Source of the DNA: Candidatus Omnitrophota bacterium
Lineage (GTDB): Bacteria > Ratteibacteria > UBA8468 > B48-G9 > JAFGKM01
Reading direction: 5' to 3'
Assembly: GCA_023819225.1 (NCBI GenBank)
Contig: JAMWCZ010000003.1
Span: 1 to 36,450, forward strand
DNA length: 36,450 nt
Shown: positions 2,625 to 28,787 of the stretch, piece by piece
Numbering within the stretch: position 1 is the stretch's first letter
How the letters are laid out: every line of letters starts with the position of its first letter
The notes under the pieces: generated by a model
The model's input: the letters and a program-made list of their open reading frames with translations, nothing else
The model's database searches: none
Told to the model about the DNA's origin: nothing
Program-made: the position numbers and the translations under genes

Positions 2625-3155
2625 ATGAAAATCATTTTACAGAAATTTTTACTACTATTTACTGTTGTTTTTGTAGCAGGATGTTCTGTAAATCAGGGGG
2701 GGGCTTATTCACGTAAACTTATAAGAGAAGGGGATAGATATTTTTCTGAAGGAGAAATTGATAAGGCGATAGAGTTATGGCAACAGGCACTGGACTATCA
2801 ACAGAAACCGGAACTTTATGAAAAAATAGTAATGGCTTATATTATGAGAAACCAGCTTTCTGATGCAGAAGAATATATCTCAAAGGGTTTGACTTATTTT
2901 CCAAATAATGTTAATCTTTTTTTTAATCTGGCACTTATAAATTTTTACAATGATGACTTTGACAGAGCAAAGAAGAATGTTGATAGGGTGCTGGAAATAA
3001 ACGGATATTATCGTGATGCTCATTTTCTTAAAGGGTTGATGTATGAAAAGGAGGGAGATATTCCTGCTGCAAAAAGAGAGTTTGTTAATGAACTGAATGT
3101 CAATCCTGGTTCAAGAAGAGCATGGAAAAAATTAAGGGAGTTAAAGGATGAATAA
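2625..3155 (+). CDS. TPR-repeat lipoprotein
   Basis: Signal peptide with lipobox FVAGC after MKIILQKFLLLFTVV. TPR-like helical repeats (AIELWQQALDY, AEEYISKGLTYFP, AHFLKGLMYEKEG). The upstream ATG at 2580 is unlikely. Its stop overlaps the next start by 8 nt. Confidence 0.75.
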   Translation: MKIILQKFLLLFTVVFVAGCSVNQGGAYSRKLIREGDRYFSEGEIDKAIELWQQALDYQQKPELYEKIVMAYIMRNQLSDAEEYISKGLTYFPNNVNLFFNLALINFYNDDFDRAKKNVDRVLEINGYYRDAHFLKGLMYEKEGDIPAAKREFVNELNVNPGSRRAWKKLRELKDE

Positions 3156-6100
3156 AAAATTCTTTTATCTGCCTGCTATCCTCATCTTTTTCTTTCAATC
3201 TTTTTTATATTCTGAAGGGCTCAATGAATATATCAGATTTTTTTCTTCTTTTTCTTCCCGTATGCCAGGAACAGAAGGACACAGGTACTCAGCGGATTTT
3301 ATAGAGAAGAAATTCAAGGAAGCAGGGCTTAAAAAGGTAAAGAAGGAAGGATTTAAGTCGGTTATTCCTGTTGAAAGATATGCCTACATTATCGTTGATA
3401 ACAAAAGAATAGATATCCATTGTCTTTGGCCAAATCTTGTAAGAACATCCACAATTCCTCCAGAAGGACTCAAAGGGAAACTTATATATGGAGGCAATGG
3501 AGACCTGAGGAATTTAACAGGAAAAGATATAGAGGGAAACATTGTTGTTCTTGACTTTGATTCAGGGACAAGATGGCAGACGATTGCTATGCTGGGTGCA
3601 AAGGCGTTCATATTTACAGAAATAGGAGATATCACCCGTATTCAAGCAGAGCAAAAATTTGTAAATATCCCGGTTAATATTCCGAGGTTCTATGCTCATA
3701 ATAATAGCAAGATGATTATTGAATTTGCCAGGGAAGAAAAGGAAGTTAATCTATTCAGCAGGATGGATTGGGAGAATGTAACGGACTATAACATATATGG
3801 CTATCTTGAAGGGAGAGATAAGAAACTAAAAGAAGAAATTATTGTCCTGCAGGCATACTATGACAGTGTTAGTGTTGTTCCATCTATTGCCCCTGGGGCA
3901 TCTTCTGCCTGTGGTATATCAGCACTCCTTGATATCCTTGACTATTTTAGTATGAACCCGCCTGCCAGGACAGTGGTTTTCCTCGCTACCTCCTCACATT
4001 TTCAGACAATGAGAGGAATAAATGAGTTTATCCAGAAACACATGAGGAAGGAACCACTTTTTAGAAAGAGAATAAAGGAAGAGGATATTATCCAGCCAAA
4101 ACTTTTTATAGGGCTTGACCTGTCGGATGGTTCGGACAGTTTAGGTATCTGGCATAATTCTTATGACTTCTATACCCAGAGGGTCTTTGCGCCATATGGT
4201 AGAAAGTTTATGGAATATGCAGATAAAGTGAGTAGATATTTAGGGTATAAAAGAGAAGCAGCACTGGTAAACGGGATAAGCCCTGAAAGAGGAATTATAT
4301 GGCAGACATTTCTTCCTGAAAAGATACGAACAGATGGTGAATTAATAATTCTTTCAGGTAATCCAGCAATTTCTTTTGTGACTGTTAATGACGGCAGATG
4401 GCGTGTTGATACTCCTTCTGATACTTATGAAAATCTAAACATTGTCAATATAACAAAACAGGCGGTCTTTCTTAAAGAGATTCTCAAAGTCGCAATTAAT
4501 GACCCTGATTTATTCCCTGAGATTGAATTAGGATTAATAAAGGATAATCTTTATACCCTTAATTCAAAAATAGTAACATTTGACCCTACCAGAAGTTTTG
4601 TTCCGAGTGAGCCAGTGGTTGGTGCGCTGGTAATACCACGGGTACACCCTACCACTATAGTGCTGGGAAAAACATCTATGGGAGTTAGAAATACCCATAT
4701 AGGTATGACCGATGAAAAAGGAAAGGCAGTTTTTTCTTCACTCGGTCTAGCAAGCACCCTAACACTATCCGCTTTTTATATAGATGGAGATAGTGGAGAG
4801 ATTGTGCTTTCTCCTGACCTTGGAGTGGGCGGAGCTGGACAATATCCTGTTTTAGTACCAATGGACTATAGAGAAAAGGACTGGATGATAGTACTTTTTG
4901 AATCAAAGACCATCTCCCTTTCAGGACTTATAGACCCTCAGTATCTTGTTACACTGGATAAAGTAGAAGTGCTTGATATGGCAGATAGTGTCCCAAGTGA
5001 GTATGGATATTATCTGCAATACCCTGGATTTATCCCTTTTATGTGGACCTCCTATTCTGAGCCAATGGGATGTGTATTTGCAAGGGGACATATGAGAATT
5101 AAGATTCTCGGACAGGCAGGACCTCTCGGTAAGCGACTCCTTCTTTTAAATTCAAAGGAAGGGAGTAAAGAAACATCAGAAGGAATGGGATTTGAAGTGG
5201 AAGACACGCCTTTTATATATAATACACCATATCAATCAGCCAGGGATATGATAATTCTTGATGCATACAGAAGAGAAAACTTTGAGCAGTTCGGAATAAA
5301 AAACGAGCGTCTGGCAGAACTTCAAACTGAAGCAAAAAAATTACTGGCAATGGCAGAAGAGGCAAAGGACAAAAAAGATTGGTATGAGTTCTTAAAGTAT
5401 TCAAGGCAGTCACAAGCGATTGAATGCAGAGCTTATCCCGATGTAAAAAATACAGCCAATGATGTTGTAAAAGGTATTATATTCTACTTTATGTTACTTC
5501 TCCCATTTGCTTATTTTGGAGAACGGCTATTGTTCAATTTTGCAAAACTTGAAAAGAGAATTGCAGGGACTTTTGGCATCTTTATAGTTATCTACTGGGT
5601 TATGCGAATGGTACATCCTGCATTCAAACTAACAAATGCCCCTGAGGTAATACTACTTTCATTTATAGTTCTTGCTCTTTCTCTTATAGTGCTATCAATA
5701 GTTGCTTCAAAATTTGAAGAGCAGATGAAACATTTGAAAATGGAATCGTCCAGGGTATATGAAACCGATGTTGGAAGGATTACAGCAACAGCGACAGCGT
5801 TTTCTTTAGGTGTTGCAAATATGAAGAGAAGGCCTATCCGGACTATACTTACAGCCATTACATTAATCCTTCTGACATTTACAGTGCTTTCATTTACCTC
5901 TATCAAGTCATATATGAAATATAACCAGATTATAAGGCCATATAGACCTATATATCAGGGGATTTTACTCAGGGACCGTTCCTGGTCACCGCTAATGGAG
6001 ACCGCACTGGAATATACAGAAAATGAATTTTCAGGAAAAGGGATTATTACACCCAGAGCATGGTTTGTTCTTGATGAACTTGGATACAGAACAGCAGTTG

Positions 6101-7533
6101 AGATAAGGTGGAAGGATGATGCTACATTTGCCTCGGGTATATTAGGACTTTCTCCACAGGAGATTACCCCTGTCAGAAATGCTGTAGTAAATGGAGAGTG
6201 GTTCAGCGACCCGTATGAGAGGTCAGTTATCCTTTCAAAGAAGATGGTTAAGGAACTTCGTCTAACTGATTCAGATATCGGCAGTGCAAGGATATGGATA
6301 TATGGTAGAGAATTTATTTTTAAAGGTATTTTTGATGAAAAACTCCTCAATGATATCAAGGATATGGATGATGAACGGATTACCCCGGTCGATTTTTCAG
6401 TGCTGCCTGAAAGAGAGGTTTCAAAGATAAAAATGGAAAAGACAGCGCAGGTTTTTACATCACAGGCAAAATTAGAGTCATTTGTTCACACAGAAGCAGA
6501 AAATATTGCTATAGTTCCTTTCGGAACACTTATGAATATGAAGGGCACGCTTCAGTCAATAGCAGTTAAATTCAATGATGATGTTGATGGTAAAGGACTT
6601 GTTGAGAGTTTTATATCAAAACTCGCGGTTATCATTTTTGCAGGAATTGGAGAGAAGACATATGTTTATAGCAGTATGGGGCTCACCTCTTTCTCAGGTA
6701 TAAGTAACCTTGTTATTCCCATACTTATAGCTGCTCTAATAGTCCTTAATACTATGTTAGGGGCGGTTTATGAAAGGATAAGAGAGATAGGAACATATAG
6801 TGCTGTTGGACTTGCTCCAGTACATATCTCATCATTATTTCTTGCAGAATCAATGGTGTATGCGGTTATGGGGTCTGTTGCTGGCTATCTTTTAGGTCAG
6901 GTTGTTGCCAGAATTCTTATGGTAACGGGGTTGTTAAAAGGGCTGGTGCTTAACTATTCTTCACTTTCTGCTGTATTTGCAACCCTTATTATATTTATCA
7001 CAGTGATACTTTCAACACTTTATCCTGCGAGAAAAGCAGCCCAGATGGCTGTGCCGGATGTTACCAGAAAGTGGATACTGCCTGAACCCAAAGGAGATAA
7101 TTGGGAGTTTGAATTTCCTTTTACAGTGGCTGAAATTGAAGTCCTTGGACTTTCAACCTTTTTAACCGATTACTTTAATTCATATCAGGATGTCTCTTTA
7201 GGCAATTTCTATACAGGTGGTGCTACCCTTGAATATGAAAAACTTCCATCAGGTAAATATAAATATATTATAGATACAGATATCTGGCTGGCCCCTTTTG
7301 ATTTAGGAGTGAGTCAACACCTGAAACTTACAATGGAACCAATGGGGCAGTATGAGTTTTATACTATAAACCTTATTATGAAAAGGACAAGCGGAGAATC
7401 AACTGACTGGAAACGACTTAATAGAAGGTTCCTTGATGGTATAAGGAAGCAATTCCTTATCTGGAGGACTGTAAGCGGTGATGTTAAGAGGGACTATGCA
7501 AGACAGGGTAAGGAACTCCTGAAAATTACATAA
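3148..7533 (+). CDS. 1461-aa membrane fusion protein: signal peptide, M28/PA peptidase-like ectodomain with degenerate metal ligands, beta-rich segment, 3 TM helices, MacB/FtsX-type permease, and a C-terminal cytoplasmic domain of unknown type
   Basis: One uninterrupted ORF. M28-like motifs: AYYDS, PGASSACG, GNPAISF, DTPSDT. FtsX signature LNTMLGAVYERIREIGTYSAVGLAP with flanking TM helices. MacB-like TM1 is RTILTAITLILLTFTVLSF, followed by a ~270-aa extracytoplasmic domain. Confidence 0.7.
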   Translation: MNKKFFYLPAILIFFFQSFLYSEGLNEYIRFFSSFSSRMPGTEGHRYSADFIEKKFKEAGLKKVKKEGFKSVIPVERYAYIIVDNKRIDIHCLWPNLVRTSTIPPEGLKGKLIYGGNGDLRNLTGKDIEGNIVVLDFDSGTRWQTIAMLGAKAFIFTEIGDITRIQAEQKFVNIPVNIPRFYAHNNSKMIIEFAREEKEVNLFSRMDWENVTDYNIYGYLEGRDKKLKEEIIVLQAYYDSVSVVPSIAPGASSACGISALLDILDYFSMNPPARTVVFLATSSHFQTMRGINEFIQKHMRKEPLFRKRIKEEDIIQPKLFIGLDLSDGSDSLGIWHNSYDFYTQRVFAPYGRKFMEYADKVSRYLGYKREAALVNGISPERGIIWQTFLPEKIRTDGELIILSGNPAISFVTVNDGRWRVDTPSDTYENLNIVNITKQAVFLKEILKVAINDPDLFPEIELGLIKDNLYTLNSKIVTFDPTRSFVPSEPVVGALVIPRVHPTTIVLGKTSMGVRNTHIGMTDEKGKAVFSSLGLASTLTLSAFYIDGDSGEIVLSPDLGVGGAGQYPVLVPMDYREKDWMIVLFESKTISLSGLIDPQYLVTLDKVEVLDMADSVPSEYGYYLQYPGFIPFMWTSYSEPMGCVFARGHMRIKILGQAGPLGKRLLLLNSKEGSKETSEGMGFEVEDTPFIYNTPYQSARDMIILDAYRRENFEQFGIKNERLAELQTEAKKLLAMAEEAKDKKDWYEFLKYSRQSQAIECRAYPDVKNTANDVVKGIIFYFMLLLPFAYFGERLLFNFAKLEKRIAGTFGIFIVIYWVMRMVHPAFKLTNAPEVILLSFIVLALSLIVLSIVASKFEEQMKHLKMESSRVYETDVGRITATATAFSLGVANMKRRPIRTILTAITLILLTFTVLSFTSIKSYMKYNQIIRPYRPIYQGILLRDRSWSPLMETALEYTENEFSGKGIITPRAWFVLDELGYRTAVEIRWKDDATFASGILGLSPQEITPVRNAVVNGEWFSDPYERSVILSKKMVKELRLTDSDIGSARIWIYGREFIFKGIFDEKLLNDIKDMDDERITPVDFSVLPEREVSKIKMEKTAQVFTSQAKLESFVHTEAENIAIVPFGTLMNMKGTLQSIAVKFNDDVDGKGLVESFISKLAVIIFAGIGEKTYVYSSMGLTSFSGISNLVIPILIAALIVLNTMLGAVYERIREIGTYSAVGLAPVHISSLFLAESMVYAVMGSVAGYLLGQVVARILMVTGLLKGLVLNYSSLSAVFATLIIFITVILSTLYPARKAAQMAVPDVTRKWILPEPKGDNWEFEFPFTVAEIEVLGLSTFLTDYFNSYQDVSLGNFYTGGATLEYEKLPSGKYKYIIDTDIWLAPFDLGVSQHLKLTMEPMGQYEFYTINLIMKRTSGESTDWKRLNRRFLDGIRKQFLIWRTVSGDVKRDYARQGKELLKIT

Positions 7534-11153: not shown

Positions 11154-11591
11154 ATGCGGTTAGAGAATAAAAAGGCATATTTTAACTATGATATACTGGA
11201 GAAGTTAGAAGCAGGGATTGTTCTAAAAGGACCTGAGGTAAAGTCATTGAGGGAAGGAAGAGGCAGCATAAAAGAATCTTTTGCCCGTATAGAAAACCAA
11301 GAGGTCTTTTTGCACAATTTCTATATAGCGCCATATCCTGCCTCTTTTGAGAAACCAGACCCATTAAGAAAGAAAAAGTTATTACTTGATAAAAGGGAAA
11401 TAAAACACCTCAGAAGGAAATTAGAAGAAAAAGGGCTGACCCTTATCCCACTTACCGTATATTTCAATAAAAGAGGACTTGTAAAGGTTGAACTCGCACT
11501 GGCAAAAGGTAAGAAGTTGTATGATAAGAGAGAAAAGATAAGAGAAAGGGATGTACAGAGGGATATTGAAAGAAGGATGAAACAGGGTTGA
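11154..11591 (+). CDS. smpB: SsrA-binding protein
   Basis: 145 aa. The motifs NKKAYFNY, GIVLKGPEVKSLR and LLLDKREI are typical of SmpB. Sits directly upstream of tmRNA. Confidence 0.9.
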   Translation: MRLENKKAYFNYDILEKLEAGIVLKGPEVKSLREGRGSIKESFARIENQEVFLHNFYIAPYPASFEKPDPLRKKKLLLDKREIKHLRRKLEEKGLTLIPLTVYFNKRGLVKVELALAKGKKLYDKREKIRERDVQRDIERRMKQG

Positions 11592-11623: not shown

Positions 11624-11979
11624 GGGGGCGATACAGGTCTCGACAGGAAGGAAGGAGGGGTAAGGTTGCCTGTAGAGTTTGTCGTGGACTCTTTAAAACA
11701 CGGCAAAAAATAACTGCCAATACGGCAAACGCTCTGGCTGCATAATTATGCAGTCACCTGTCTATAAAGGAGTTCCCTGCTCCTTATAGAACAGGTCGGC
11801 AAACAGGGAATTCTTTTCAGGGTTTATCTTTCTCCCTGGAAAGGATTAACAAAAAGGTTGCGGAAAATATGCGGTGTTCGGAGCCGTCTCTTTTCCTAAG
11901 ATAAAACTCCGGGCTACACAGGTAGATACCTTATCACTACCCTTTCTGGACGCGGGGGCAGTACCCGCCGCCTCCACCA
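11624..11979 (+). ncRNA. ssrA: tmRNA (SsrA)
   Basis: 5' GGGGGCGATACAGGTCTCGACAGG. 3' tRNA-like end GGACGCGGGGGCAGTACCCGCCGCCTCCACCA with a G3:U70 pair. Tag reading frame 11716-11745 encodes ANTANALAA then stop. Confidence 0.9.
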
Positions 11980-12051
11980 AGGTTATAAAAGTTAAGTTTG
12001 CTTGACAATTTTGACAGTTTAGAAGTCCTCCCCGCGGACAGCAAAGGGGTG

Positions 12052-12080
12052 CAGGGGAAAGGACTGTCCCCTGCGTTTTT
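12052..12080 (+). terminator. Intrinsic terminator after tmRNA
   Basis: 7-bp stem CAGGGGA/TCCCCTG followed by CGTTTTT. Confidence 0.55.
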
Positions 12081-12086
12081 CGCTGT

Positions 12087-12174
12087 GGGGGGGAGGACTA
12101 TATCAGGAAGGGGGAAGCACCCCCTCCTGAAGAGCGAAGCGAGGACGCGGGGGCAGTACCCGCCGCCTCCACCA
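12087..12174 (+). repeat. Conserved 56-nt module plus exact second copy of the tmRNA 3' end
   Basis: 12087-12142 matches 2239-2293. 12143-12174 is identical (32/32) to tmRNA 11948-11979, including the CCA. Confidence 0.85.
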
Positions 12175-12343
12175 GTATCATATTTGTGGCGGTGCCATTT
12201 ATGGCAAAAATATTGTCGGATAAACATACTCGATAAATCTTGAGGGATGGAGTAGCCCGCTACAGTGTATGTTTACATCCTATTTTCATGAATGACTTAA
12301 CTGATAGATTTATAGATTAAAAAGATGTGAACAGATAAGAAGA

Positions 12344-13465
12344 GTGATGAAAGTTAAAAAAAAAATACTACTGTTGGCCTCTCTGATTATAATCTTACTG
12401 CCATTTTTCTGTTACGCACTTAATATCCGTGAAGAGATAAAAGAGAGAAAAATACCAACCTATCTGATAGAAAATAATTCTTATATATCCCTTAGAAGTT
12501 TACTTAAAATCCTTGGTGCTGAAGATTCTTGGGGTAGAGTTGAAGACAGAATTTTTATAAAACATCAGGATATAGAGATAAAGTTTAAAATCAACAGTAC
12601 CCAGGTTTTTCTTGATAAAAAGGTAGAGTATTTAGGCGTTCCGGTTAAGGAAGTTGAAGGTGATGTTCTTATACCTGTGGATGACTTTAACAATATCCTT
12701 TCTGGTTTTGTAGCAGCACCCAGGGTTTCAAAAGAACCTTCTTTCAAAGAAGAAACAGTTATTACAAAAGATAAAAACAGGAGTTTTATTATACTTATAG
12801 ACCCGGGACATGGCGGGAAAGATGACGGTGCTGTTGGGTATTATGGTTTAAAAGAAAAGTCAGTAAATCTGGATATTGCAAAAAGGATGAAGGAATACCT
12901 TAATAAGGAATTGAGGAGAAATACCAAAGTAGGAATTTATATGACCAGAGAGGAAGATATAGATGTTTCTCTGATGGAAAGGGTTCAGATGGCTAAGGAT
13001 ATAAAAGCAGATGTGTTTTTCAGTATCCATACAAACTCTTCCAGAGACAGAAGGCCTGATGCAGATGGTTTTGAGACATACTATTCTGGAGTAAAGGAAG
13101 ACCTTGTCTTTCTGCCATCTTCTCCGGAGAAGGAAGTATTGGACGAAGGGACTGAGGGGGACTCATCTCTATTAAAAATACTTGACGACCTGAATACTAC
13201 AAGTGCGGTTGATGAAAGCAGGATATTGGCGGATTTCGTTCAGGAACGACTTGCCGAGAGGTTGCTAACACCTGACAGAGGAACGAAACGTAGGGGATTT
13301 TATGTTTTAAGATATACACCTATGCCTGCAATTTTAACTGAGATAGGTTTTATATGCAATCCTAATGTAGAGTGGAATCTAAAAGATGCTGAAGTGAGAC
13401 AGGCAATCGCAGAGGCGCTTGCAAAGGGCTTGCTTGATTATCTTAAATTCAGGGATGTAATATGA
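12344..13465 (+). CDS. N-acetylmuramoyl-L-alanine amidase (Amidase_3) with N-terminal stalk domain
   Basis: Signal peptide followed by IDPGHGGKDDGAVG and FFSIHTNS motifs and a C-terminal GFICNP motif. Start is GTG 12344 or ATG 12347. Confidence 0.85.
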   Translation: MMKVKKKILLLASLIIILLPFFCYALNIREEIKERKIPTYLIENNSYISLRSLLKILGAEDSWGRVEDRIFIKHQDIEIKFKINSTQVFLDKKVEYLGVPVKEVEGDVLIPVDDFNNILSGFVAAPRVSKEPSFKEETVITKDKNRSFIILIDPGHGGKDDGAVGYYGLKEKSVNLDIAKRMKEYLNKELRRNTKVGIYMTREEDIDVSLMERVQMAKDIKADVFFSIHTNSSRDRRPDADGFETYYSGVKEDLVFLPSSPEKEVLDEGTEGDSSLLKILDDLNTTSAVDESRILADFVQERLAERLLTPDRGTKRRGFYVLRYTPMPAILTEIGFICNPNVEWNLKDAEVRQAIAEALAKGLLDYLKFRDVI

Positions 13466-13848: not shown

Positions 13849-14732
13849 TGGAAAACGGATTTTATGATATTGAAATTCCTGGAATAAAGAAGATTTATTC
13901 AGGTAAGGTAAGAGAACTCTTTGAGTTTGATGATAAGAATATGCTGATGGTAGCAACGGACAGGATATCTGCCTTTGACTATATTCTGCCCACTCCTATA
14001 CCTGAAAAAGGGATAATTCTTACAAAGATGTCTATCTTCTGGTTTGAATATCTTAAAGGTATTGTAAAAAACCACATTGTTGAACACAGATTTGAAAAAT
14101 TCCCTGAGATGTTTCAACAGTATTCATTTCTTAAAGACCGCTCTGTCATTGTAAAAAAGGTTAAAAAGGTGCCTATTGAATGTGTTGTAAGGGGATACCT
14201 TGCAGGTAGTGGCTGGAAGGAATATAAAGAAAAAGGAGAGGTTTGTGGTGTAATGTTGCCCTCCGGCTTGAAAGAGTCAGAGAAACTCCCTGAACCCATC
14301 TTTACACCTGCTACAAAGGAAGAGAAAGGTCAGCATGATATAAACATTGACTTTTCAGAAATGACTAAAAGGGTCGGCGAAGAGATTGCTTATGTACTTA
14401 AAGAAAAATCTATAGAAATCTATAATAAGGCATCCATATATGCTGAAAGTAAAGGTATTATTATTGCAGATACAAAATTTGAGTTCGGTATAGATGAAAA
14501 TGATAAGGTTATACTGATAGATGAGGTATTTACTCCCGACTCTTCACGTTTCTGGGAGAAGGAGAAATACAGACCGGGGATATCTCAGGATAGTTTAGAT
14601 AAACAATATATCAGGGACTATCTTCTTTCAACTGACTGGGACAGAAACTCGCCTCCACCCGGCCTTCCTGATAGTGTTGTTGATATGACAGTGAATAAAT
14701 ACAGGCAGATATATCATATTCTTACAAGATAG
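13848..14732 (+). CDS. purC: SAICAR synthase
   Basis: 294 aa with GKVRELF, ATDRISAFD and IIADTKFEFG motifs. Confidence 0.9.
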   Translation: MENGFYDIEIPGIKKIYSGKVRELFEFDDKNMLMVATDRISAFDYILPTPIPEKGIILTKMSIFWFEYLKGIVKNHIVEHRFEKFPEMFQQYSFLKDRSVIVKKVKKVPIECVVRGYLAGSGWKEYKEKGEVCGVMLPSGLKESEKLPEPIFTPATKEEKGQHDINIDFSEMTKRVGEEIAYVLKEKSIEIYNKASIYAESKGIIIADTKFEFGIDENDKVILIDEVFTPDSSRFWEKEKYRPGISQDSLDKQYIRDYLLSTDWDRNSPPPGLPDSVVDMTVNKYRQIYHILTR

Positions 14733-14786
14733 ATATTCCTCACCTTTACCCTCTCCCCCAAGGAATGATGTGTTAGTATCAGAATA

Positions 14787-14985
14787 TGTAGCGGTGTGAC
14801 CCGTCACTAAAGATTTGGCGGGCAGGACTGTGAGAAGGAAGAAAGGCGTGAGATATGAGAAATTTCCTCCCCCTCACCCTACCCTCTCCCCGCTGGGGAG
14901 AGGGTAGAAAAGGGGGGGAGAAGAGAGAAAGGCGTGAGATGTAAGAAGGGCGAGGGGAATTTGTGATATAAATGCCACCGCTACA
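14787..14985. repeat. MITE-like 199-bp element bounded by 10-bp perfect terminal inverted repeats
   Basis: TGTAGCGGTG at 14787-14796 and CACCGCTACA at 14976-14985. Flanks end and begin with AATA. The interior carries REP unit 14882-14904 and an 82-bp segment repeated at 24894-24974. Confidence 0.4.
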
Positions 14986-19166: not shown

Positions 19167-19187
19167 TCTATGTTCTATCAACTTTAA

Positions 19188-19302
19188 CCCTCTCCCCATT
19201 AGGGAGAGGGTATGGGTGAGGGGATTCCCTCTCCCCCTGTGGGGAGAGGGTATGGGTGAGGGGTTTCCCTCTCCCCATCGGGGAGAGGGTATGGGTGAGG
19301 GG
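19188..19302 (+). repeat. Tandem array of 3 REP units (period ~39 nt)
   Basis: Units at 19188-19210, 19227-19250 and 19267-19289: CCCTCTCCCC-N3-4-GGGGAGAGGG. Each is followed by TATGGGTGAGGGG. Confidence 0.9.
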
Positions 19303-19467
19303 AGAGGGGTGCCGAGTAGAGGAATAAAGAGCCTCTACTGGCACGCCCGCCGAGTTGGTGAGGCGGGTGACCGAAGCCCGTAAGGGCAAGAAGGGTGAGG
19401 GGAGAGTTAGGGTATTTTTGAACAAAAAATTAGAGGAAAAGGTTTTACCCATGTACCCTATCTGTAC
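19297..19467 (+). repeat. Conserved structured element, copy 1 (inverted partner at 28170-28340)
   Basis: 19297-19434 is 138/138 identical to the reverse complement of 28203-28340. After ~20 divergent nt, the 14-nt motif TACCCTATCTGTAC (19454-19467) is again shared. Contains three hairpins. Confidence 0.9.
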
Positions 19468-19473
19468 GGATTT

Positions 19474-19503
19474 TTGACTTGAAGATAAAAGATGTGATAA
19501 AAT
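19474..19503 (+). promoter_or_regulatory. Putative gdh promoter TTGACT-18-TAAAAT
   Basis: -35 at 19474-19479, exactly 6 nt after the shared 14-nt motif. -10 at 19498-19503. Confidence 0.4.
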
Positions 19504-24744: not shown

Positions 24745-24893
24745 CGTAATCTTCTATTATACCTTTTTAAGTTAGATTTTGCTATCCCTTCTTGCTTCTC
24801 CCCAATGCGACAGTCCGCCAACGTCTTAGTGGTGGAAGGGGGGAGGATATAGTTTGGGGTGGAGAGTATGGTAAGGGGTTCACCCTCACCCTG

Positions 24894-24974
24894 CCCCCTC
24901 ACCCTACCCTCTCCCCGTTGGGGAGAGGGAAGAAAAGGGGGGAGAAGAGAGAAAGGCGTGAGATGTAAGAAGGG
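24894..24974 (+). repeat. 81-bp direct repeat of 14869-14950, containing REP unit 24907-24929
   Basis: Differs from 14869-14950 by 2 substitutions and one G-run length. The motif GGGGGGAGGATATAG at 24838-24852, upstream of this repeat, resembles the 5' end of the tRNA/tmRNA-associated module. Confidence 0.85.
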
Positions 24975-25047
24975 AGAAAATCCTCCCCCTCGGAGGGGGA
25001 AAGATATAGGAAGAGGAATGAAAGGGAGAGAATAGTCAAAGGGAGAA

Positions 25048-26135: not shown

Positions 26136-26202
26136 CCTATTCTTCCCTTTCCCTATCCCTGTTTGTCCACCTCGCCTTTCTCTCTTCCCTACACCTTTTA
26201 TT

Positions 26203-26274
26203 CCCTCTCCCCATCGGGGAGAGGGCAGGGGTGAGGGGCATCCTTTCTTTTCACTCTCCACTGTGGGGAGAGGG
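26203..26274. repeat. Two REP units between pilin-cluster genes
   Basis: CCCTCTCCCCATCGGGGAGAGGG at 26203-26225 plus a degenerate unit at 26252-26274, each followed by CAGGGGTGAGGGG. Confidence 0.8.
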
Positions 26275-26293
26275 CAGGGGTGAGGGGCCCTCC

Positions 26294-28120
26294 TTACCAC
26301 TTTATCTGCCAACTACCAGGGACAGGAACATACCTCCTTCTGCCCCAGAAAAACCCTTTATATACCCTTGAGTTTTTCATATACGGTTCAGGGTCATAGA
26401 TGATAGAGGTATTTCTGCCTATTTGTAATGTATCTCCTGCAACAAGAATACCTGTAATGGTCTGAGTATTATCATTCAAGGTTATATTCCTGTATGAGTA
26501 GATGCTTCCCCTGATATTAAAATTATTGGCATTTATGTTTACATTTGCACTATTACTATAATTCACAATTGCAAACTGAAAAGGCGGGTCAAAAGGATAA
26601 TTTATTGTAAAAGGACTTCCTATAGTTATAGTTCCGGTTGAAGCAACTACCGCAATCCCCGCCCTCTGGTTTTCCCCAAGGGTAATAGTTGGAGAACTAG
26701 ATATATTTATCGTTCCGGCACTCCCTGAAGAACTGTTGTGTATATATACGACAGCATCATAGTCAGAGTTTGTTGCGTCTATCGTCCCACCTGAGATATT
26801 AATTGTATGTGCTACAGAAGATGTATTATAACAGACACTGCTTCCATTTATAGTCCCTCCACTTACTGTAATATCCTCATTTGAAAGGACATTTCCATTT
26901 ATTGTCCCGCCACTTAATGTAATATCTCCGGTTGCAAAGACATCTCCACTGATTGTTCCTCCACTGATTGTAATAGCCCTACTTGAAAGTACATCCCCCC
27001 CTATATTCCCACTATTTACTGTAATATCCTGGTCACATTTTACCTTTCCAGTGATATTATTACTTAGTATTAGTGCCCCCCCTTTAACAACAAGGTCTCC
27101 GGTTATTGTGATTCCTGACGCTATGGTCAAAGAAGCACCTGTCATATCCAGACAGAGATTAGAATTTGTATTAGTGATTATATCTTTATTTATCGTCAAA
27201 TTCTTTGTTGCTGCTATTTTAAAATAATTGTCAATGGTAACATCACCCGCATTATTTGGAATTTGTGCATCTGCCTCAACAATAATTGTTCTGCCCCCTG
27301 AGTTAAAATCTTCTGGTAAGAGGTTAGAATTATCTCTTCCAAAAAGATATGTTGAGCCATTCCAGTAGATACCAGGGGCAGGGTCAGGGGTATCGTTGAC
27401 ACTAATACCTCCTGGATATGTCGCATTTATCAGCATACCTGTCTCAGTATATGTATCATCATATACACCTGGTGGAGAAGGGAGATTAAGGTCAACAGTA
27501 AAAGAGGATGTAGAGGTTTCAAAATGAACTATATCAGATAAGGTAAAGGTTTCTGTCCATGTGGCTTCTGTCAGTCCAGATGGTTTATTTGTAATAGTTT
27601 CGCTCATTACATTACCTTTAATAGATACATTTGATGGCGGAGTGCCGCTAAAATTCAGATTTTTTGCATATATTGTATGTTTATTAAATGCTTCAGGAAT
27701 ACCACTATAGGCAGATTTAAGGTTATCTCCTGTATGTGCATATCCTTTAACATTTACTGACACCTCTGCTGTTCTTCCTCTGTATGTTCCAGTTGAAACA
27801 ATCTTTGTCTCACAGGATGTGTCTAACACTAATGTTGCTTTTGCCCCTGAAGGAAAACCAGGAAGCACTATATCTTCTGATGGGGTTGTAAAAGCAGGAT
27901 ACTGGCCTGTATCATACTGGCTATAATTCATCCGATAGAGTACTTCCTGTATCCCTGTCTGGGCTATCTGTAGGGCTATATTTTTGTCCTTGTAGAAGTG
28001 GGCTCTTCTTATTGCAGTTGTAGACGAGATAACTACAGCAATGATAAGGGCAGCAAAAATGATTATCATCACAAGCACCATTATCATTGCCACACCATCT
28101 CTACTGTTTTTGTTTTTCAT
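26294..28120 (-). CDS. 609-aa PilX-N-like pilus-associated protein with beta-helical repeat region
   Basis: ATG 28120 is preceded by GGAGGGAGG. The N-terminal hydrophobic helix VAMIMVLVMIIIFAALIIAVVISS followed by ALQIAQTGIQEVLYRM resembles PilX_N. Periodic ITxSGGTIxGDV repeats. The ORF-track extension to 28282 covers the repeat element. Confidence 0.7.
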   Translation of the reverse strand: MKNKNSRDGVAMIMVLVMIIIFAALIIAVVISSTTAIRRAHFYKDKNIALQIAQTGIQEVLYRMNYSQYDTGQYPAFTTPSEDIVLPGFPSGAKATLVLDTSCETKIVSTGTYRGRTAEVSVNVKGYAHTGDNLKSAYSGIPEAFNKHTIYAKNLNFSGTPPSNVSIKGNVMSETITNKPSGLTEATWTETFTLSDIVHFETSTSSFTVDLNLPSPPGVYDDTYTETGMLINATYPGGISVNDTPDPAPGIYWNGSTYLFGRDNSNLLPEDFNSGGRTIIVEADAQIPNNAGDVTIDNYFKIAATKNLTINKDIITNTNSNLCLDMTGASLTIASGITITGDLVVKGGALILSNNITGKVKCDQDITVNSGNIGGDVLSSRAITISGGTISGDVFATGDITLSGGTINGNVLSNEDITVSGGTINGSSVCYNTSSVAHTINISGGTIDATNSDYDAVVYIHNSSSGSAGTINISSSPTITLGENQRAGIAVVASTGTITIGSPFTINYPFDPPFQFAIVNYSNSANVNINANNFNIRGSIYSYRNITLNDNTQTITGILVAGDTLQIGRNTSIIYDPEPYMKNSRVYKGFFWGRRRYVPVPGSWQIKW

Positions 28121-28134
28121 CCTCCCTCCATAAT

Positions 28135-28163
28135 ATTTTACCATAAAAGTCATTTTAATGCAA
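28135..28163 (-). promoter_or_regulatory. Promoter of the pilX-like operon TTGCAT-17-TAAAAT
   Basis: On the minus strand, -35 at 28163-28158 is exactly 6 nt after the shared TACCCTATCTGTAC motif. -10 is at 28140-28135. Confidence 0.5.
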
Positions 28164-28169
28164 TATACT

Positions 28170-28340
28170 GTACAGATAGGGTATATAGTTAATACTTTCT
28201 TATCTAATTTTTTGTTCAAAAATACCCTAACTCTCCCCTCACCCTTCTTGCCCTTACGGGCTTCGGTCACCCGCCTCACCAACTCGGCGGGCGTGCCAGT
28301 AGAGGCTCTTTATTCCTCTACTCGGCACCCCTCTCCCCTC
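28170..28340 (-). repeat. Conserved structured element, copy 2 (inverted partner of 19297-19467)
   Basis: 28203-28340 is the exact reverse complement of 19297-19434. The 14-nt motif is at 28170-28183. Confidence 0.9.
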
Positions 28341-28490
28341 TGGCAGGGGCGAGGGGCAAGAGAGGAGACCCCTCACCCTATCCCTCTCCCCGCTGTGCGG
28401 GGCGAGGGAAGCCCCTCACCCTATCCCTCTCCCCTCTGACAGGGGCGAGGGAATCCCCTCACCCATACCCTCTCCCCGATGGGGAGAGGG
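28328..28490 (-). repeat. Array of 4 REP units
   Basis: Units at 28328-28355, 28382-28408, 28425-28451 and 28468-28490, separated by CCCCTCACCC-type linkers. Same relative order and orientation to the 138-bp element as array 19188-19302. Confidence 0.85.
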
Positions 28491-28787
28491 AAAAAGAGAG
28501 GGGGATAGTGTGGGAAGAGAGAATAAAAGGTGAGGGAAAAGGTAAGATTCTTAAATTCCTCCCCATATGAAGGAGAATGATAAAGGTGAGGATGAAGGGT
28601 AAGGGGCAGGGGGATAAATGCTACCGCACAGAATCTTCTAACTTTTCAAGTATATTGGGGGTATTACCTAAGGTGTCTTAAATTCTGCAAAATTTTAAGA
28701 GTTAAAACAGCATAAAAATTTTATCCTCTCATTATCATTCCTATACCAAAAAATATGGTATAATTTTGTATGGCAAGGAGGTGACTT

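Follow-up and report, generated by a model that had tools for sequence, protein, structure and literature searches.

Why does the 3′ end of the tmRNA gene occur twice in this Candidatus Omnitrophota contig, and what is the DNA between the two copies? In the window, by which we mean the whole stretch of 36,450 nt analyzed, the sequence GGACGCGGGGGCAGTACCCGCCGCCTCCACCA is present exactly twice, at 11948–11979 and 12143–12174, with 0 mismatches; shuffling 100 times gives an expectation of none. It is the first copy that forms the true end of the gene, as a sequence-only reading of this DNA had proposed: Rfam model RF00023 matches 11624–11979 over its full length, directly 3′ of smpB (11154–11591; SmpB assigned by Pfam PF01668). 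ARAGORN did not call the gene at 11624–11979. The repeats are separated by 163 nt, and we define the element at this site as the 195-bp interval 11980–12174, of which ssrA is the target, or host gene. The locus contains the following features:

11624–11979, + strand: tmRNA (ssrA) gene (RF00023, 161.4 bits, model positions 1–374 of 374)
11948–11979, + strand: fragment A, first copy of the direct repeat and native tmRNA 3′ end (exact 32-nt match; tmRNA-model alignment)
11980–12026, + strand: trailer, the variable left part of the unit (alignment of the window with the syntenic relative L075; unit listing)
12027–12039, + strand: left arm, TCCTCCCCGCGGAC (complementarity to the tmRNA T-stem region)
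12043–12081, + strand: AAAGGGG motif, hairpin P1 and T-run (unit comparison)
12087–12142, + strand: invariant 56-nt module (sequence comparison across units)
12143–12174, + strand: fragment B, second copy of the direct repeat, a copy of the tmRNA 3′ end (exact match to fragment A)
12183–12206, + strand: solo terminus copy of the MITE/REP-like element 14787–14985 (10-mer with 1 mismatch to both termini)

Fragment A is made up of 4 nt, the T-arm, the acceptor 3′ strand and ACCA, and fragment B forms the right boundary of the unit. The trailer contains TTGCTTGACAA, which is common to other tmRNA-site units, and the CCCCGCG of the left arm is the reverse complement of CGCGGGG in the T-stem region of the tmRNA. 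Hairpin P1 (12050–12075, TGCAGGGGA...TCCCCTGCG) is followed by a T-run at 12076–12080, and from its sequence this combination looks like an intrinsic terminator supplied by the element. Within the module, a G-run, GGGGGGAGGAC, is followed in order by TATATC, hairpin P2 (12103–12130), AAGA, a GCGAAGC minihairpin (12134–12140) and GA. Just downstream, TGTGGCGGTG (12185–12194) is indeed one mismatch away from both termini of the element at 14787–14985, and roughly 20 of the 24 nt at 12183–12206 match that terminus when read by eye; this terminus-like sequence probably lies outside the tmRNA unit.

The same module also follows a tRNA gene of the window, and the similarity between the two copies extends more weakly in the 5′ direction through the hairpin that we call P1, both as the earlier reading had described. 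The second locus comprises:

2072–2154, + strand: tRNA-Leu(GAG), host gene (ARAGORN; Rfam tRNA, 48.6 bits)
2155–2325, + strand: second unit (covariance model R1, sequence comparison)

This unit is divided into a trailer (2155–2172), left arm (2173–2192), P1 (2201–2228), module (2238–2293) and fragment B (2294–2325). Its left arm, GGGATTTGAA-gaca-CACGGC, is the reverse complement of TTCAAATCCC and GCCGTG in the tRNA, and its fragment B is a near-copy of the tRNA 3′ end, with a 23-nt exact core and one extra C in the 5′ strand of the T-stem. The two modules (12087–12142 and 2238–2293) differ by two substitutions and in their first base. Covariance model R1 scores 105.8 bits at 2192–2282 and 101.3 bits at 12040–12131, with the next-best match in the window at 17 bits; in a scan of the window with Rfam 15, only the tmRNA, tRNAs and 16S rRNA pass the gathering threshold.

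Repeats carry a general risk of misassembly in metagenomes, and an assembly artefact could in principle have duplicated the tmRNA end; nothing beyond that general risk speaks for it. The same duplication is present in an independent assembly (GCA_023819205.1, contig JAMWDG010000003.1, 99.98% identity over 6.4 kb) and in the syntenic relative, which makes an artefact very unlikely; given that the two independent assemblies agree in sequence and that homologous units occur in dozens of unrelated samples, we consider its probability negligible.

The homologous units define a family of 77 copies (59 distinct) at 63 loci, in Omnitrophota, Ratteibacteria, related metagenome-assembled genomes (MAGs) and metagenomes of hot-spring type; a genome scan contributed 15 true copies and a metagenome scan 47 loci. 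Units measure about 110–190 nt, contain no ORF, and all lie on the strand of their host gene, directly 3′ of a tmRNA gene or of a tRNA gene belonging to one of 15 isoacceptors: Leu(taa, cag, caa, gag, tag), Ser, Gly, Val(cac, tac), Thr, Met, Ala, Arg(cct, tcg) and Lys. The cognate gene is found 64–88 nt upstream of the module. The order of parts is shared: (i) trailer, (ii) left arm, (iii) AAAGGGG and P1, (iv) a near-invariant module of ~45–56 nt with P2, and (v) fragment B. P1 stands at most ~50 nt upstream of the module in all 77 copies, with the exception of L006, where the distance is 150 nt. Two parts of each unit are matched to the target. The right end is in every case a direct copy of the last 14–38 nt of the host gene and always matches the upstream gene, its edge varying from 0 to ~8 nt past the gene in single units, and the left arm is in every case an imperfect inverted copy of the variable-region/T-arm of that gene. 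A gene-end repeat next to an intact gene is seen in 50+ units, the window providing a case of 32/32 nt beside a full-length tmRNA. The arrangement of module followed by fragment B seen at the window tmRNA recurs in L016/L075, L022, L084 and L088. Nearly identical cores, with a P1 of the type TAAGAGGG, occur at Val-tac, Val-cac, Ser, Gly, Lys and tmRNA genes with arms and fragments matched to each, and near-identical modules turn up in MAGs whose assigned phyla differ, an indication of horizontal spread. We consider it very probable that the interval 11980–12174 belongs to a family of mobile, non-autonomous elements. The data support the sequence-only reading in taking the duplication for the footprint of a mobile or integrative element, with the tmRNA or tRNA 3′ end as its classic target.

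That reading had also taken the perfect identity of the two copies for a sign of a recent event, which does not hold. In L075, whose proteins are only ~80–88% identical to those of the window, the tRNA-Leu-GAG and tmRNA units occupy orthologous positions, and the insertions are therefore old. In this comparison, conservation reaches 100% in the module and the duplicated fragment, with many mismatches in the tmRNA body; together with the orthology, this indicates that the identity of the copies reflects constraint or concerted evolution and not youth.

The same data bear on the most ordinary explanation, in which the repeats are the attL and attR of a conventional prophage or island in ssrA whose interior has been deleted. 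The 3′ ends of tmRNA and tRNA genes are classic integrase targets, a gene-end direct repeat does flank the insert, and a conventional island does use tRNA-Leu(tag) in L067, L068, L072 and L079. However, a compact unit of 110–190 nt with constant architecture is found at 16 different genes in many genomes, and independent deletions would not converge on it; no integrase remnant is present, and the orthologous unit in the diverged L075 means that the insertion is not recent. This explanation is already largely refuted by the family data, and we regard it as very improbable. Integrative elements of tRNA and tmRNA genes (prophages, islands, ICEs and IMEs) and CIMEs nevertheless share much with the units, namely insertion at the gene 3′ end, a direct repeat of that end on both sides, an intact gene and tandem accretion; tandem ssrA islands of Dehalococcoides are among the subjects of PMC3146451. 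CIMEs in addition have ends of attL/attR type with no recombination or transfer genes inside. The units differ in being only 110–190 bp long, in using one core for at least 16 target genes, and in adding an inverted target-matched arm and covarying hairpins. In contrast to a prophage or island, the tmRNA unit has no integrase or cargo between its repeats and none in its flanks, and, unlike for a CIME, no autonomous ICE or IME sharing the unit ends was found among the 63 loci, viruses and plasmids.

Strains vary in how many units they carry, and some relatives lack units. A 182-nt indel separates L083 from L084, whose flanks are fully identical; L085 and L087 have an empty tmRNA site, and tRNA-Val sites are empty in L039 and L070, whose native flank follows fragment B in the filled L031. 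Units also form tandem arrays of two or three, and the tRNA-Leu(tag) locus exists in the states A, B, A+B and B+A′+B. At this tRNA, the conventional island of L067, L068, L072 and L079 uses the anticodon loop.

A second group of observations concerns structure. P1 was found in 50/50 distinct variants, and its outer pairs covary (AU 23, GC 18, CG 12, UA 9). P1 and P2 are 95.6% paired, compared with 62–78% in slid controls, and 18/20 of their pairs show double changes, these pair counts coming from a covariance-model alignment that was itself fitted to the structure. With RNAalifold on a plain MAFFT alignment, P1 was mis-registered and no covariation was reported, and the covariance-model-based alignment was used instead. 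In divergent subfamilies the pairing of P2 is kept by compensatory changes (TAAAGGAAGGGG/CCCCTTCCTTTA in L088 and TTAAGGGGAG/CCTCCCCTTAA in L084). The minihairpin GCGNAGC varies among units with the loops GAA, GCA and GGA. A T·G closing pair of P1 is conserved on the + strand, from which we conclude that the structure is strand-specific; the folding energies of the window unit as DNA, −58.0 kcal/mol for the + and −58.3 kcal/mol for the − strand, are uninformative on strand choice because both strands fold equally well. P1 is often terminator-like across the family, and its covariation can be explained by terminator function alone. A terminator scan called the P1 of the tRNA-Leu unit terminator-like (2201–2228 plus ATTTTGTATT); that of the tmRNA unit was not called, and GCAGGGG..CCCCTGC followed by GTTTTTCG is visible in its sequence. 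Several subfamilies have no T-run after P1.

These features could be read as those of a cis element that benefits the host, a modular tRNA 3′ trailer serving as terminator, processing signal or small RNA; gene conversion or homologous recombination would have carried it from one tRNA gene to another, with the 3′ fragment as a portable homology arm, and selection would then keep it in place. Such a role would agree with the terminator-like P1, with the orthology of both units in L075 and the higher conservation of module and fragment relative to the tmRNA body, with the large share of tRNAs that carry a unit in the examined loci, and with the failure to find a mobilizing enzyme. On the other hand, units are missing or differ in copy number in related strains and species and are thus dispensable; the most conserved parts, the module and fragment B, lie downstream of the putative terminator; and near-identical modules occur in MAGs of different phyla. 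Furthermore, the identity at the T-loop junctions extends over 7–11 nt, and identity of 7–11 nt is too short for exchange of the RecA type. We therefore judge a host-beneficial cis element to be improbable.

The left arm is tuned to its own target. Its complementarity to the cognate gene amounts to −22.4 kcal/mol, compared with −15.3 kcal/mol for non-cognate genes, and 0 of 10000 permutations were as low. In 40/48 units the arm fits the native gene better than it fits fragment B, and in 40/48 the pairing reaches bases of the native tRNA outside the duplication. An arm of this kind recalls the guides of single-strand peel-and-paste elements, and the unit could be a derivative of these (a PATE of the IS200/IS605 type, or REP/RAYT-like) moved in trans by a Y1 transposase of the HUH class. 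P1 and P2 would then be the subterminal hairpins, the left arm 5′ of P1 an extended guide, paired to the same-strand T-arm, that directs cleavage to the gene 3′ end, and fragment B a right-end copy of the cleavage context. The resemblance to IS200/IS605, PATE and REP elements is considerable: terminal inverted repeats are absent and the ends asymmetric, subterminal hairpins are strand-specific (in the units by the conserved T·G pair of P1 on the + strand), a guide lying inside the element, 5′ to the left hairpin, base-pairs with flanking target sequence, here the native gene on the same strand, insertion is orientation-specific and 3′ of a defined sequence, and miniature copies are abundant. 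Empty sites are clean; the Val-type fragment after tRNA-Gly in L020 is as expected of an off-target hop that kept its own right end; GCGNAGC, which forms a stable DNA minihairpin, is present in the units; and REP-like repeats of GTAG type occur in the window. Yet IS200/IS605 elements have no flanking repeat and a constant right end, whereas the units carry a long target repeat at a right end that varies with the target; their guide has 6–20 nt and not 4; no TnpA, TnpB or RAYT partner was found in the flanks of the loci examined; and the hybrid fragments, with their joints in the T-loop, are more readily explained by a crossover than by cleavage at the ends. A peel-and-paste origin thus appears unlikely. 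The units are also distinct from classical MITEs, as their termini are not inverted repeats and the flanking repeat is 14–38 nt long and gene-specific, with no short fixed duplication.

Target homology at both ends also speaks for insertion by RNA templating, as with SINEs or prime-editing guides. Here a transcript covering both tRNA and unit would pair with the nicked gene through its 3′ fragment, which would be the primer-binding site; a reverse transcriptase supplied in trans would then copy the unit, and the direct repeat would result from the 5′ tRNA sequence acting as a second homology arm. The conserved 3′ part and more variable 5′ part, the structure specific to the sense strand, and the location of units within highly transcribed tRNA operons are in line with this scheme. 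It leaves the left arm with no role, however, and P1 with its T-run in mid-unit would stop most transcripts before the module; moreover, the repeats lack the CCA of mature tRNAs, some run past the gene end, and the loci examined gave no sign of a reverse transcriptase or group II intron. RNA templating is, in our estimate, quite improbable.

The junctions themselves point to the T-arm. From the T-loop to the 3′ end, fragment B is almost always identical to the native gene, and lineage-specific indels are found in its variable-region/T-stem-5′ part. The fragment in L020 is a hybrid whose Val-like left part meets a Gly right part within CGATTCC. The two L036 copies represent two alleles, distinguished by a compensatory T-stem pair, and in L088 the native tmRNA has no encoded CCA while fragment B keeps CCACCA.

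We propose that the unit is a non-autonomous integrative cassette that undergoes Campbell-type exchange with the gene, at the T-loop or close to it, catalyzed in trans by a site-specific recombinase, most likely of the tyrosine type, encoded elsewhere in the genome. The exchange would leave the gene intact, with its 3′ end and the putative P1 terminator coming from the element, and the displaced native 3′ fragment would end up at the far side of the unit. The left arm would pair with T-arm sequence, probably in single-stranded DNA as in integron attC sites or the attP of CTX phage, and this pairing may present or recognize the site and give each lineage its tRNA specificity. We hold this explanation as a whole, a miniature non-coding family member with trans-catalyzed recombination at the T-arm, at a little under an even chance, and the recombination mechanism as stated still more tentatively. 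Several points weigh on it: a Campbell exchange requires that the element bring the right tRNA 3′ part, leaves near-identical cores at many tRNAs with matched arms unexplained on its own, and would act on a circle of 150–190 bp, which is small for a duplex recombination substrate. Also against it are the failure of the searches to find a recombinase or an autonomous relative, the variable right edge of the repeat, the equal folding of both DNA strands, a P1 covariation that terminator function alone could account for, and the use of a structure-fitted alignment for the pair counts. A further reading is a base-pair-programmed element. Its arm, in the form of single-stranded DNA or of a transcript, would serve as guide to the variable-region/T-arm, an enzyme bound to the module would insert the unit at the gene 3′ end, and a new arm and right-end copy would retarget the core; we regard this as doubtful.

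Two folded sites resemble the units in some respects. As in integron attC, the units appear to contain an imperfect inverted repeat with two paired boxes, an unpaired spacer and an enclosed variable branched region (GGGATTTGAA-gaca-CACGGC ... GCCGTG-gcggg-TTCAAATCCC, the two-box pairing being recognized by eye and cognate-specific by statistics), and part of the site is conserved more in structure than in sequence. ORF-less cassettes in CALIN arrays are similarly short and in tandem, and the inferred crossover adjoins GTT (T-loop G53-T54-T55), as in integrons. The units differ from attC in that the R box is the tRNA T-loop GTTCRAN and not GTTRRRY, the unit-to-unit repeat has 14–38 nt and not 7, a near-invariant central module is present, and the units are located at tRNA genes and not beside attI/intI, with no recurring intI-like ORF and arrays of 2–3 only. 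With the folded single-strand attP of CTX-type phages (IMEX, XerCD at dif) the units share two inverted, imperfect target-like copies ~100 nt apart, whose single-stranded fold could mimic the chromosomal target, and exchange would be by a host or trans enzyme. In comparison, the units target the tRNA T-arm and not dif, are 50 times smaller and encode nothing, and a single-stranded replicative form of them would be putative.

Searches for an enzyme or a parent element gave the following results. In sequence flanking the unit loci, neither an integrase nor a transposase nor a reverse transcriptase recurs, and no autonomous version of the unit is present among the 63 loci. The only recurrent flanking protein family looks URO-D-like by eye. 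The only ORFs in the interval of the tmRNA unit, 11937–12227 (− strand) and 11998–12243 (+ strand), are spurious read-throughs of the repeat, and a hidden protein gene was rejected since the "conserved ORF" clusters seen across units come from translating the repeat itself. In IMG/VR, two module patterns gave 0 matches and a 14-base core gave 86, which we read as chance because each agrees with at most 29 of 56 consensus positions; blastn of the module against INPHARED phages and PLSDB plasmids gave no match, and a viral or plasmid origin was rejected on these negatives. The module sequence appeared in no paper, and keyword searches of the literature returned nothing relevant. As for known RNAs, a hammerhead or other self-cleaving ribozyme was rejected, since CCUGAAGAGCGAAGCGA contains CUGANGA but the GAAA core is absent and no ribozyme scores at E ≤ 10 in 11900–12400. 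For the second copy, a permuted or two-piece tmRNA was dismissed on sub-threshold scores in the same interval (alpha_tmRNA 28.1 bits, threshold 50; permuted tmRNA 24–27 bits, threshold 47) and on the presence of a complete one-piece tmRNA. GTGCG after the L006 unit prompted a search for a group II intron, and no Rfam intron domain was found in L006, L020, L027, L053, L044, L041 and L055. Finally, the scaffold-like module followed by ~30 nt of tRNA 3′ end, downstream of a tRNA, resembles the homing guide of a type V-K CAST; this was rejected because the window ORFs tested are all housekeeping genes, with no transposon genes. Unlike in such systems, no transposon ends, cas12k, tnsB/C or tniQ lie within reach of the unit, the unit is 160 nt from the gene and not kilobases, there is no second repeat, and the module is unlike known repeats.

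Taken together, the units constitute a family of very small structured DNA elements that hold no genes and were apparently not described before, and the target-matched sequences in each unit suggest a retargetable choice of insertion site. If the family is as it appears, elements of 110–190 bp suffice for site-specific integration at tRNA and tmRNA genes, and (i) target choice would lie in two short segments that flank a constant core and can be exchanged, and (ii) the family offers a handle for finding the enzyme by co-occurrence profiling in Omnitrophota genomes. It would also explain why tRNA 3′ flanks in these genomes are crowded with partial tRNA copies, which can mislead annotation and island finders. 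In the plainest case, that of a CIME-like parasite of a resident integrase, the family would show cleanly how nature retargets an element across 16 attachment sites. At its most interesting, it would represent a new kind of sequence-programmable DNA insertion, and base-pair-programmed units, if real, would form a natural insertion system, very small and retargetable, with no relation to CRISPR, TnpB or IS110 bridge RNAs.

The sequence-only reading had claimed an exact duplication of the tmRNA 3' end, and this is borne out: the 32-mer GGACGCGGGGGCAGTACCCGCCGCCTCCACCA occurs exactly twice in the window, with none expected by chance. The first copy is the true end of a full-length tmRNA gene directly preceded by smpB, and the second (fragment B) closes a unit whose 56-nt module, as had also been noted, is found again 3' of tRNA-Leu(GAG):

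11624–11979, + strand, full-length tmRNA (Rfam RF00023, 161 bits)
11948–11979, first 32-mer copy, native tmRNA 3' end
12087–12142, module of the tmRNA unit
12143–12174, second 32-mer copy, fragment B
2238–2293, module of the tRNA-Leu(GAG) unit, followed by a near-copy of that gene's 3' end

Searched with a covariance model of the unit core, the window yields just this pair (105.8 and 101.3 bits; next match, 17 bits). An assembly artefact, a possibility raised earlier, is very unlikely because another public assembly from this organism (GCA_023819205.1; 99.98% identity over 6.4 kb) carries the same duplication. ARAGORN gives no call at 11624–11979, despite the Rfam score, and likewise misses the tmRNAs of loci L016 and L022; tmRNAs in this lineage may be under-annotated.

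Other repeats were noticed in the window. A solo copy of about 24 nt (20/24 identical) of one terminus of a MITE-like element lies just past the tmRNA unit, at 12183–12206; the element itself (about 199 nt, 14787–14985) has 10-nt terminal inverted repeats TGTAGCGGTG/CACCGCTACA. Abundant, often tandem REP-like intergenic repeats (CCCCTCACCC..CCCTCTCCCC..GGGGAGAGGG) occur at 2330–2400, 14730–14960, 19170–19480, 24890–24980, 26185–26300 and 28150–28540, and include a 187-nt inverted pair, 19297–19483/28154–28340, that is 92% complementary. A 1461-aa ORF (3148–7533) combines M28 peptidase and FtsX-like permease domains, with at least 78% identity in syntenic relatives, and a 662-aa bactofilin-domain ORF (26294–28282, minus strand) contains four 51-nt in-frame repeats (26849–27030).

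Scanning one genome per species with an exact pattern gave 33 loci, of which 15 hold the true module; the remaining 18 were set aside as unrelated after reading their flanks. The 15 belong to MAGs whose labels read Omnitrophota, Ratteibacteria, Vermiphilus or 'bacterium', and in every one a tRNA or tmRNA 3' part immediately follows the module, with the complete gene of matching type a short way upstream in the same orientation. With 47 further loci from a metagenome scan (5' module pattern), the family comprises 77 module copies, 59 of them distinct; wherever enough sequence precedes a copy, a cognate gene or fragment is present. The host genes are tRNA-Leu (anticodons taa, cag, caa, gag, tag), tRNA-Val (cac, tac), tRNA-Arg (cct, tcg), tRNA-Ser, tRNA-Gly, tRNA-Thr, tRNA-Met, tRNA-Ala, tRNA-Lys and tmRNA. 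From gene end to module start, simple units measure 64–88 nt, and their parts are, from the gene outwards:

a, trailer, often with TTCTTTGA inside
b, left arm, immediately 5' of AAAGGGG, imperfect reverse complement of the host variable region and T-arm
c, hairpin P1, outer pairs covarying freely, T.G closing pair kept (+ strand)
d, module, nearly invariant: GGGGGGAGRACTAYATC, hairpin P2, tail
e, fragment B, direct copy of the last 14–38 nt of the host gene

Left arms and their gene matches are: tRNA-Leu-GAG (window), GGGATTTGAA-gaca-CACGGC – GCCGTG-ggggg-TTCAAATCCC; tmRNA, CCCCGCG – CGCGGGG; tRNA-Val, GGAATTGAACCGAGACTTC – GAAGTCGCAGGTTCAAGTCC; tRNA-Arg, GGGCGACAC – GTGTCGCCC; and tRNA-Thr, TCCCGACCCGCG – CGCGGGTCGGGA. 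A T-run often lies 3' of P1, which a terminator scan called in the tRNA-Leu unit and not in the tmRNA unit. The module tail is GAGCGAAGCGA in subfamily A, the window's type, and GAT(N3) in subfamily B. Unit trailers in the Ratteibacteria MAG (L010, L022, L027) are filled by short tandem repeats CAGTGATTAGTGACCAGTGATTAGT, and one unit in L006 has a structured insertion of about 150 nt (1000–1145) between P1 and module; this linker can therefore take cargo. A second tRNA-3' family (L020 705–860; L053, 3' of tRNA-His, minus strand, below 266; L027 7180–7300; L006 1270–1330) has the same trailer and a target-matched left arm, e.g., GGGAATCGAA, the reverse complement of the tRNA-Gly T-loop/T-stem; its core differs (GGAGCGAAGTNAGRRATTGCGA ... 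GCGACGAGTAAGGAGCAT) and has no Rfam match.

In a model-based alignment of 73 distinct sequences, to be read with the caution that it is itself fitted to the structure, 95.6% of cells pair versus 62–78% with slid partners, and 18/20 pairs show double changes. P2 is also kept by compensatory changes in divergent tmRNA-site subfamilies (L088, L084). Complementarity between arm and fragment is cognate-specific (-22.4 vs -15.3 kcal/mol; 0/10000 permutations as low). The left arm thus reads the gene itself and more than the right end of its own element, because it fits the native gene better than fragment B in 40/48 distinct units, the complementarity reaching native bases beyond the duplicated segment.

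Units are gained and lost. Arrays of two or three tandem units are common, and one tRNA-Leu(tag) locus exists in sample-dependent states (A only, B only, A+B, B+A'+B), A' being a recombinant with its left from A and its right from B. At L067, L068, L072 and L079 tRNA-Leu(tag) has other sequence in place of its 5' half, up to the anticodon loop (…AAAAACTTAG|GATCC…), and this junction resembles an attR belonging to a larger conventional island; if so, this gene would be targeted at the anticodon loop by an island and at the 3' end by mini-units. The flanks of L083 and L084 are identical throughout, and what sets the two contigs apart is a 182-nt indel with the 12-nt left-arm sequence at its edges. 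Among SmpB-anchored loci, two relatives have an empty tmRNA site (L085 and L087; SmpB 79% and 71% identical), and in others the site is occupied by a divergent unit, by two units or by remnants. A gene cassette for DUF559 (PF04480), flanked by ATCCCCCTTTTGAAAAGGGGGAATAAGGGGGATTTGT repeats (L083 2480–2900; L084 2660–3080; L086 2555–3030), sits beside or within tmRNA-unit remnants in the ssrA-to-amidase gene interval. The trailer is brought by the element, since the native flank of empty tRNA-Val loci (L039, L070) is the sequence after fragment B in filled L031.

The earlier interpretation, a recent, single integration event, holds for the integration-type element, and neither for its singleness, given the 77-copy family, nor for its recency. 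The latter, argued from perfect identity, is wrong because L075, syntenic with the window (proteins ~80–88% identical), carries the two units too, each at the same gene as in the window, with module and fragment 100% conserved and the tmRNA body and trailer not. The window's units are old, and perfect copy identity reflects constraint or concerted evolution.

Between T-loop and gene end, fragment B hardly ever departs from the native sequence, and its variable-region/T-stem-5' part shows frequent, lineage-specific differences. Several Leu units, the window's included (GTGGcGGG), have an extra base immediately 5' of GGGTTC. In L020 a fragment joins a Val-like left to a Gly right inside CGATTCC, and a Val-type fragment lies after tRNA-Gly; in L036 a compensatory T-stem pair separates the two copies, which are therefore two alleles; and in L088 the native tmRNA encodes no CCA and fragment B has CCACCA. 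An exchange between the gene and a copy borne by the element, in or near the T-loop, agrees with these patterns better than a simple staggered-cut duplication does.

No ORF can be placed within the unit, the window genes tested are all housekeeping, and the 63 flanks share no recurrent gene for an integrase, transposase or reverse transcriptase. The unit matched no Rfam family, ribozyme or permuted tmRNA and nothing in IMG/VR, INPHARED or PLSDB, and a literature search gave no paper with its sequence. It falls short of four known classes on defining features: (i) an integrase-borne element or CIME with a parent (no integrase or autonomous parent among the 63 loci); (ii) an integron attC cassette (no GTTRRRY core or intI); (iii) an IS200/IS605-type element (right end not constant, no TnpA); and (iv) a classical MITE (no terminal inverted repeats). 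In its working the unit resembles a CIME or attC-type cassette; it passes the defining tests for none of the families considered.

The best-supported reading is a non-autonomous integrative cassette that would recombine with the gene at the T-arm through a recombinase acting in trans. The exchange would restore the gene, its 3' end and P1 terminator coming from the element, and leave the displaced 3' piece behind as fragment B. The inverted left arm would pair with T-arm sequence, plausibly as single-stranded DNA, as at integron attC sites and CTX-phage attP, and so present the site or allow its recognition. Retargeting is the chief difficulty for the cassette reading: near-identical cores stand at six different genes, each with matched arm and fragment. 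Plain Campbell exchange needs extra steps to explain this, as does every rival, whether an HUH-type single-strand transposon carrying an extended guide, an insertion templated via reverse transcriptase or a domesticated trailer module, all of which are possible. One such step could be insertion at a wrong target, with gene conversion from the neighbouring gene afterwards, and L020 and L028 look like candidate intermediates. We file the unit as a miniature site-specific mobile element; that base pairing programs its choice of target is a real, though less likely, possibility.
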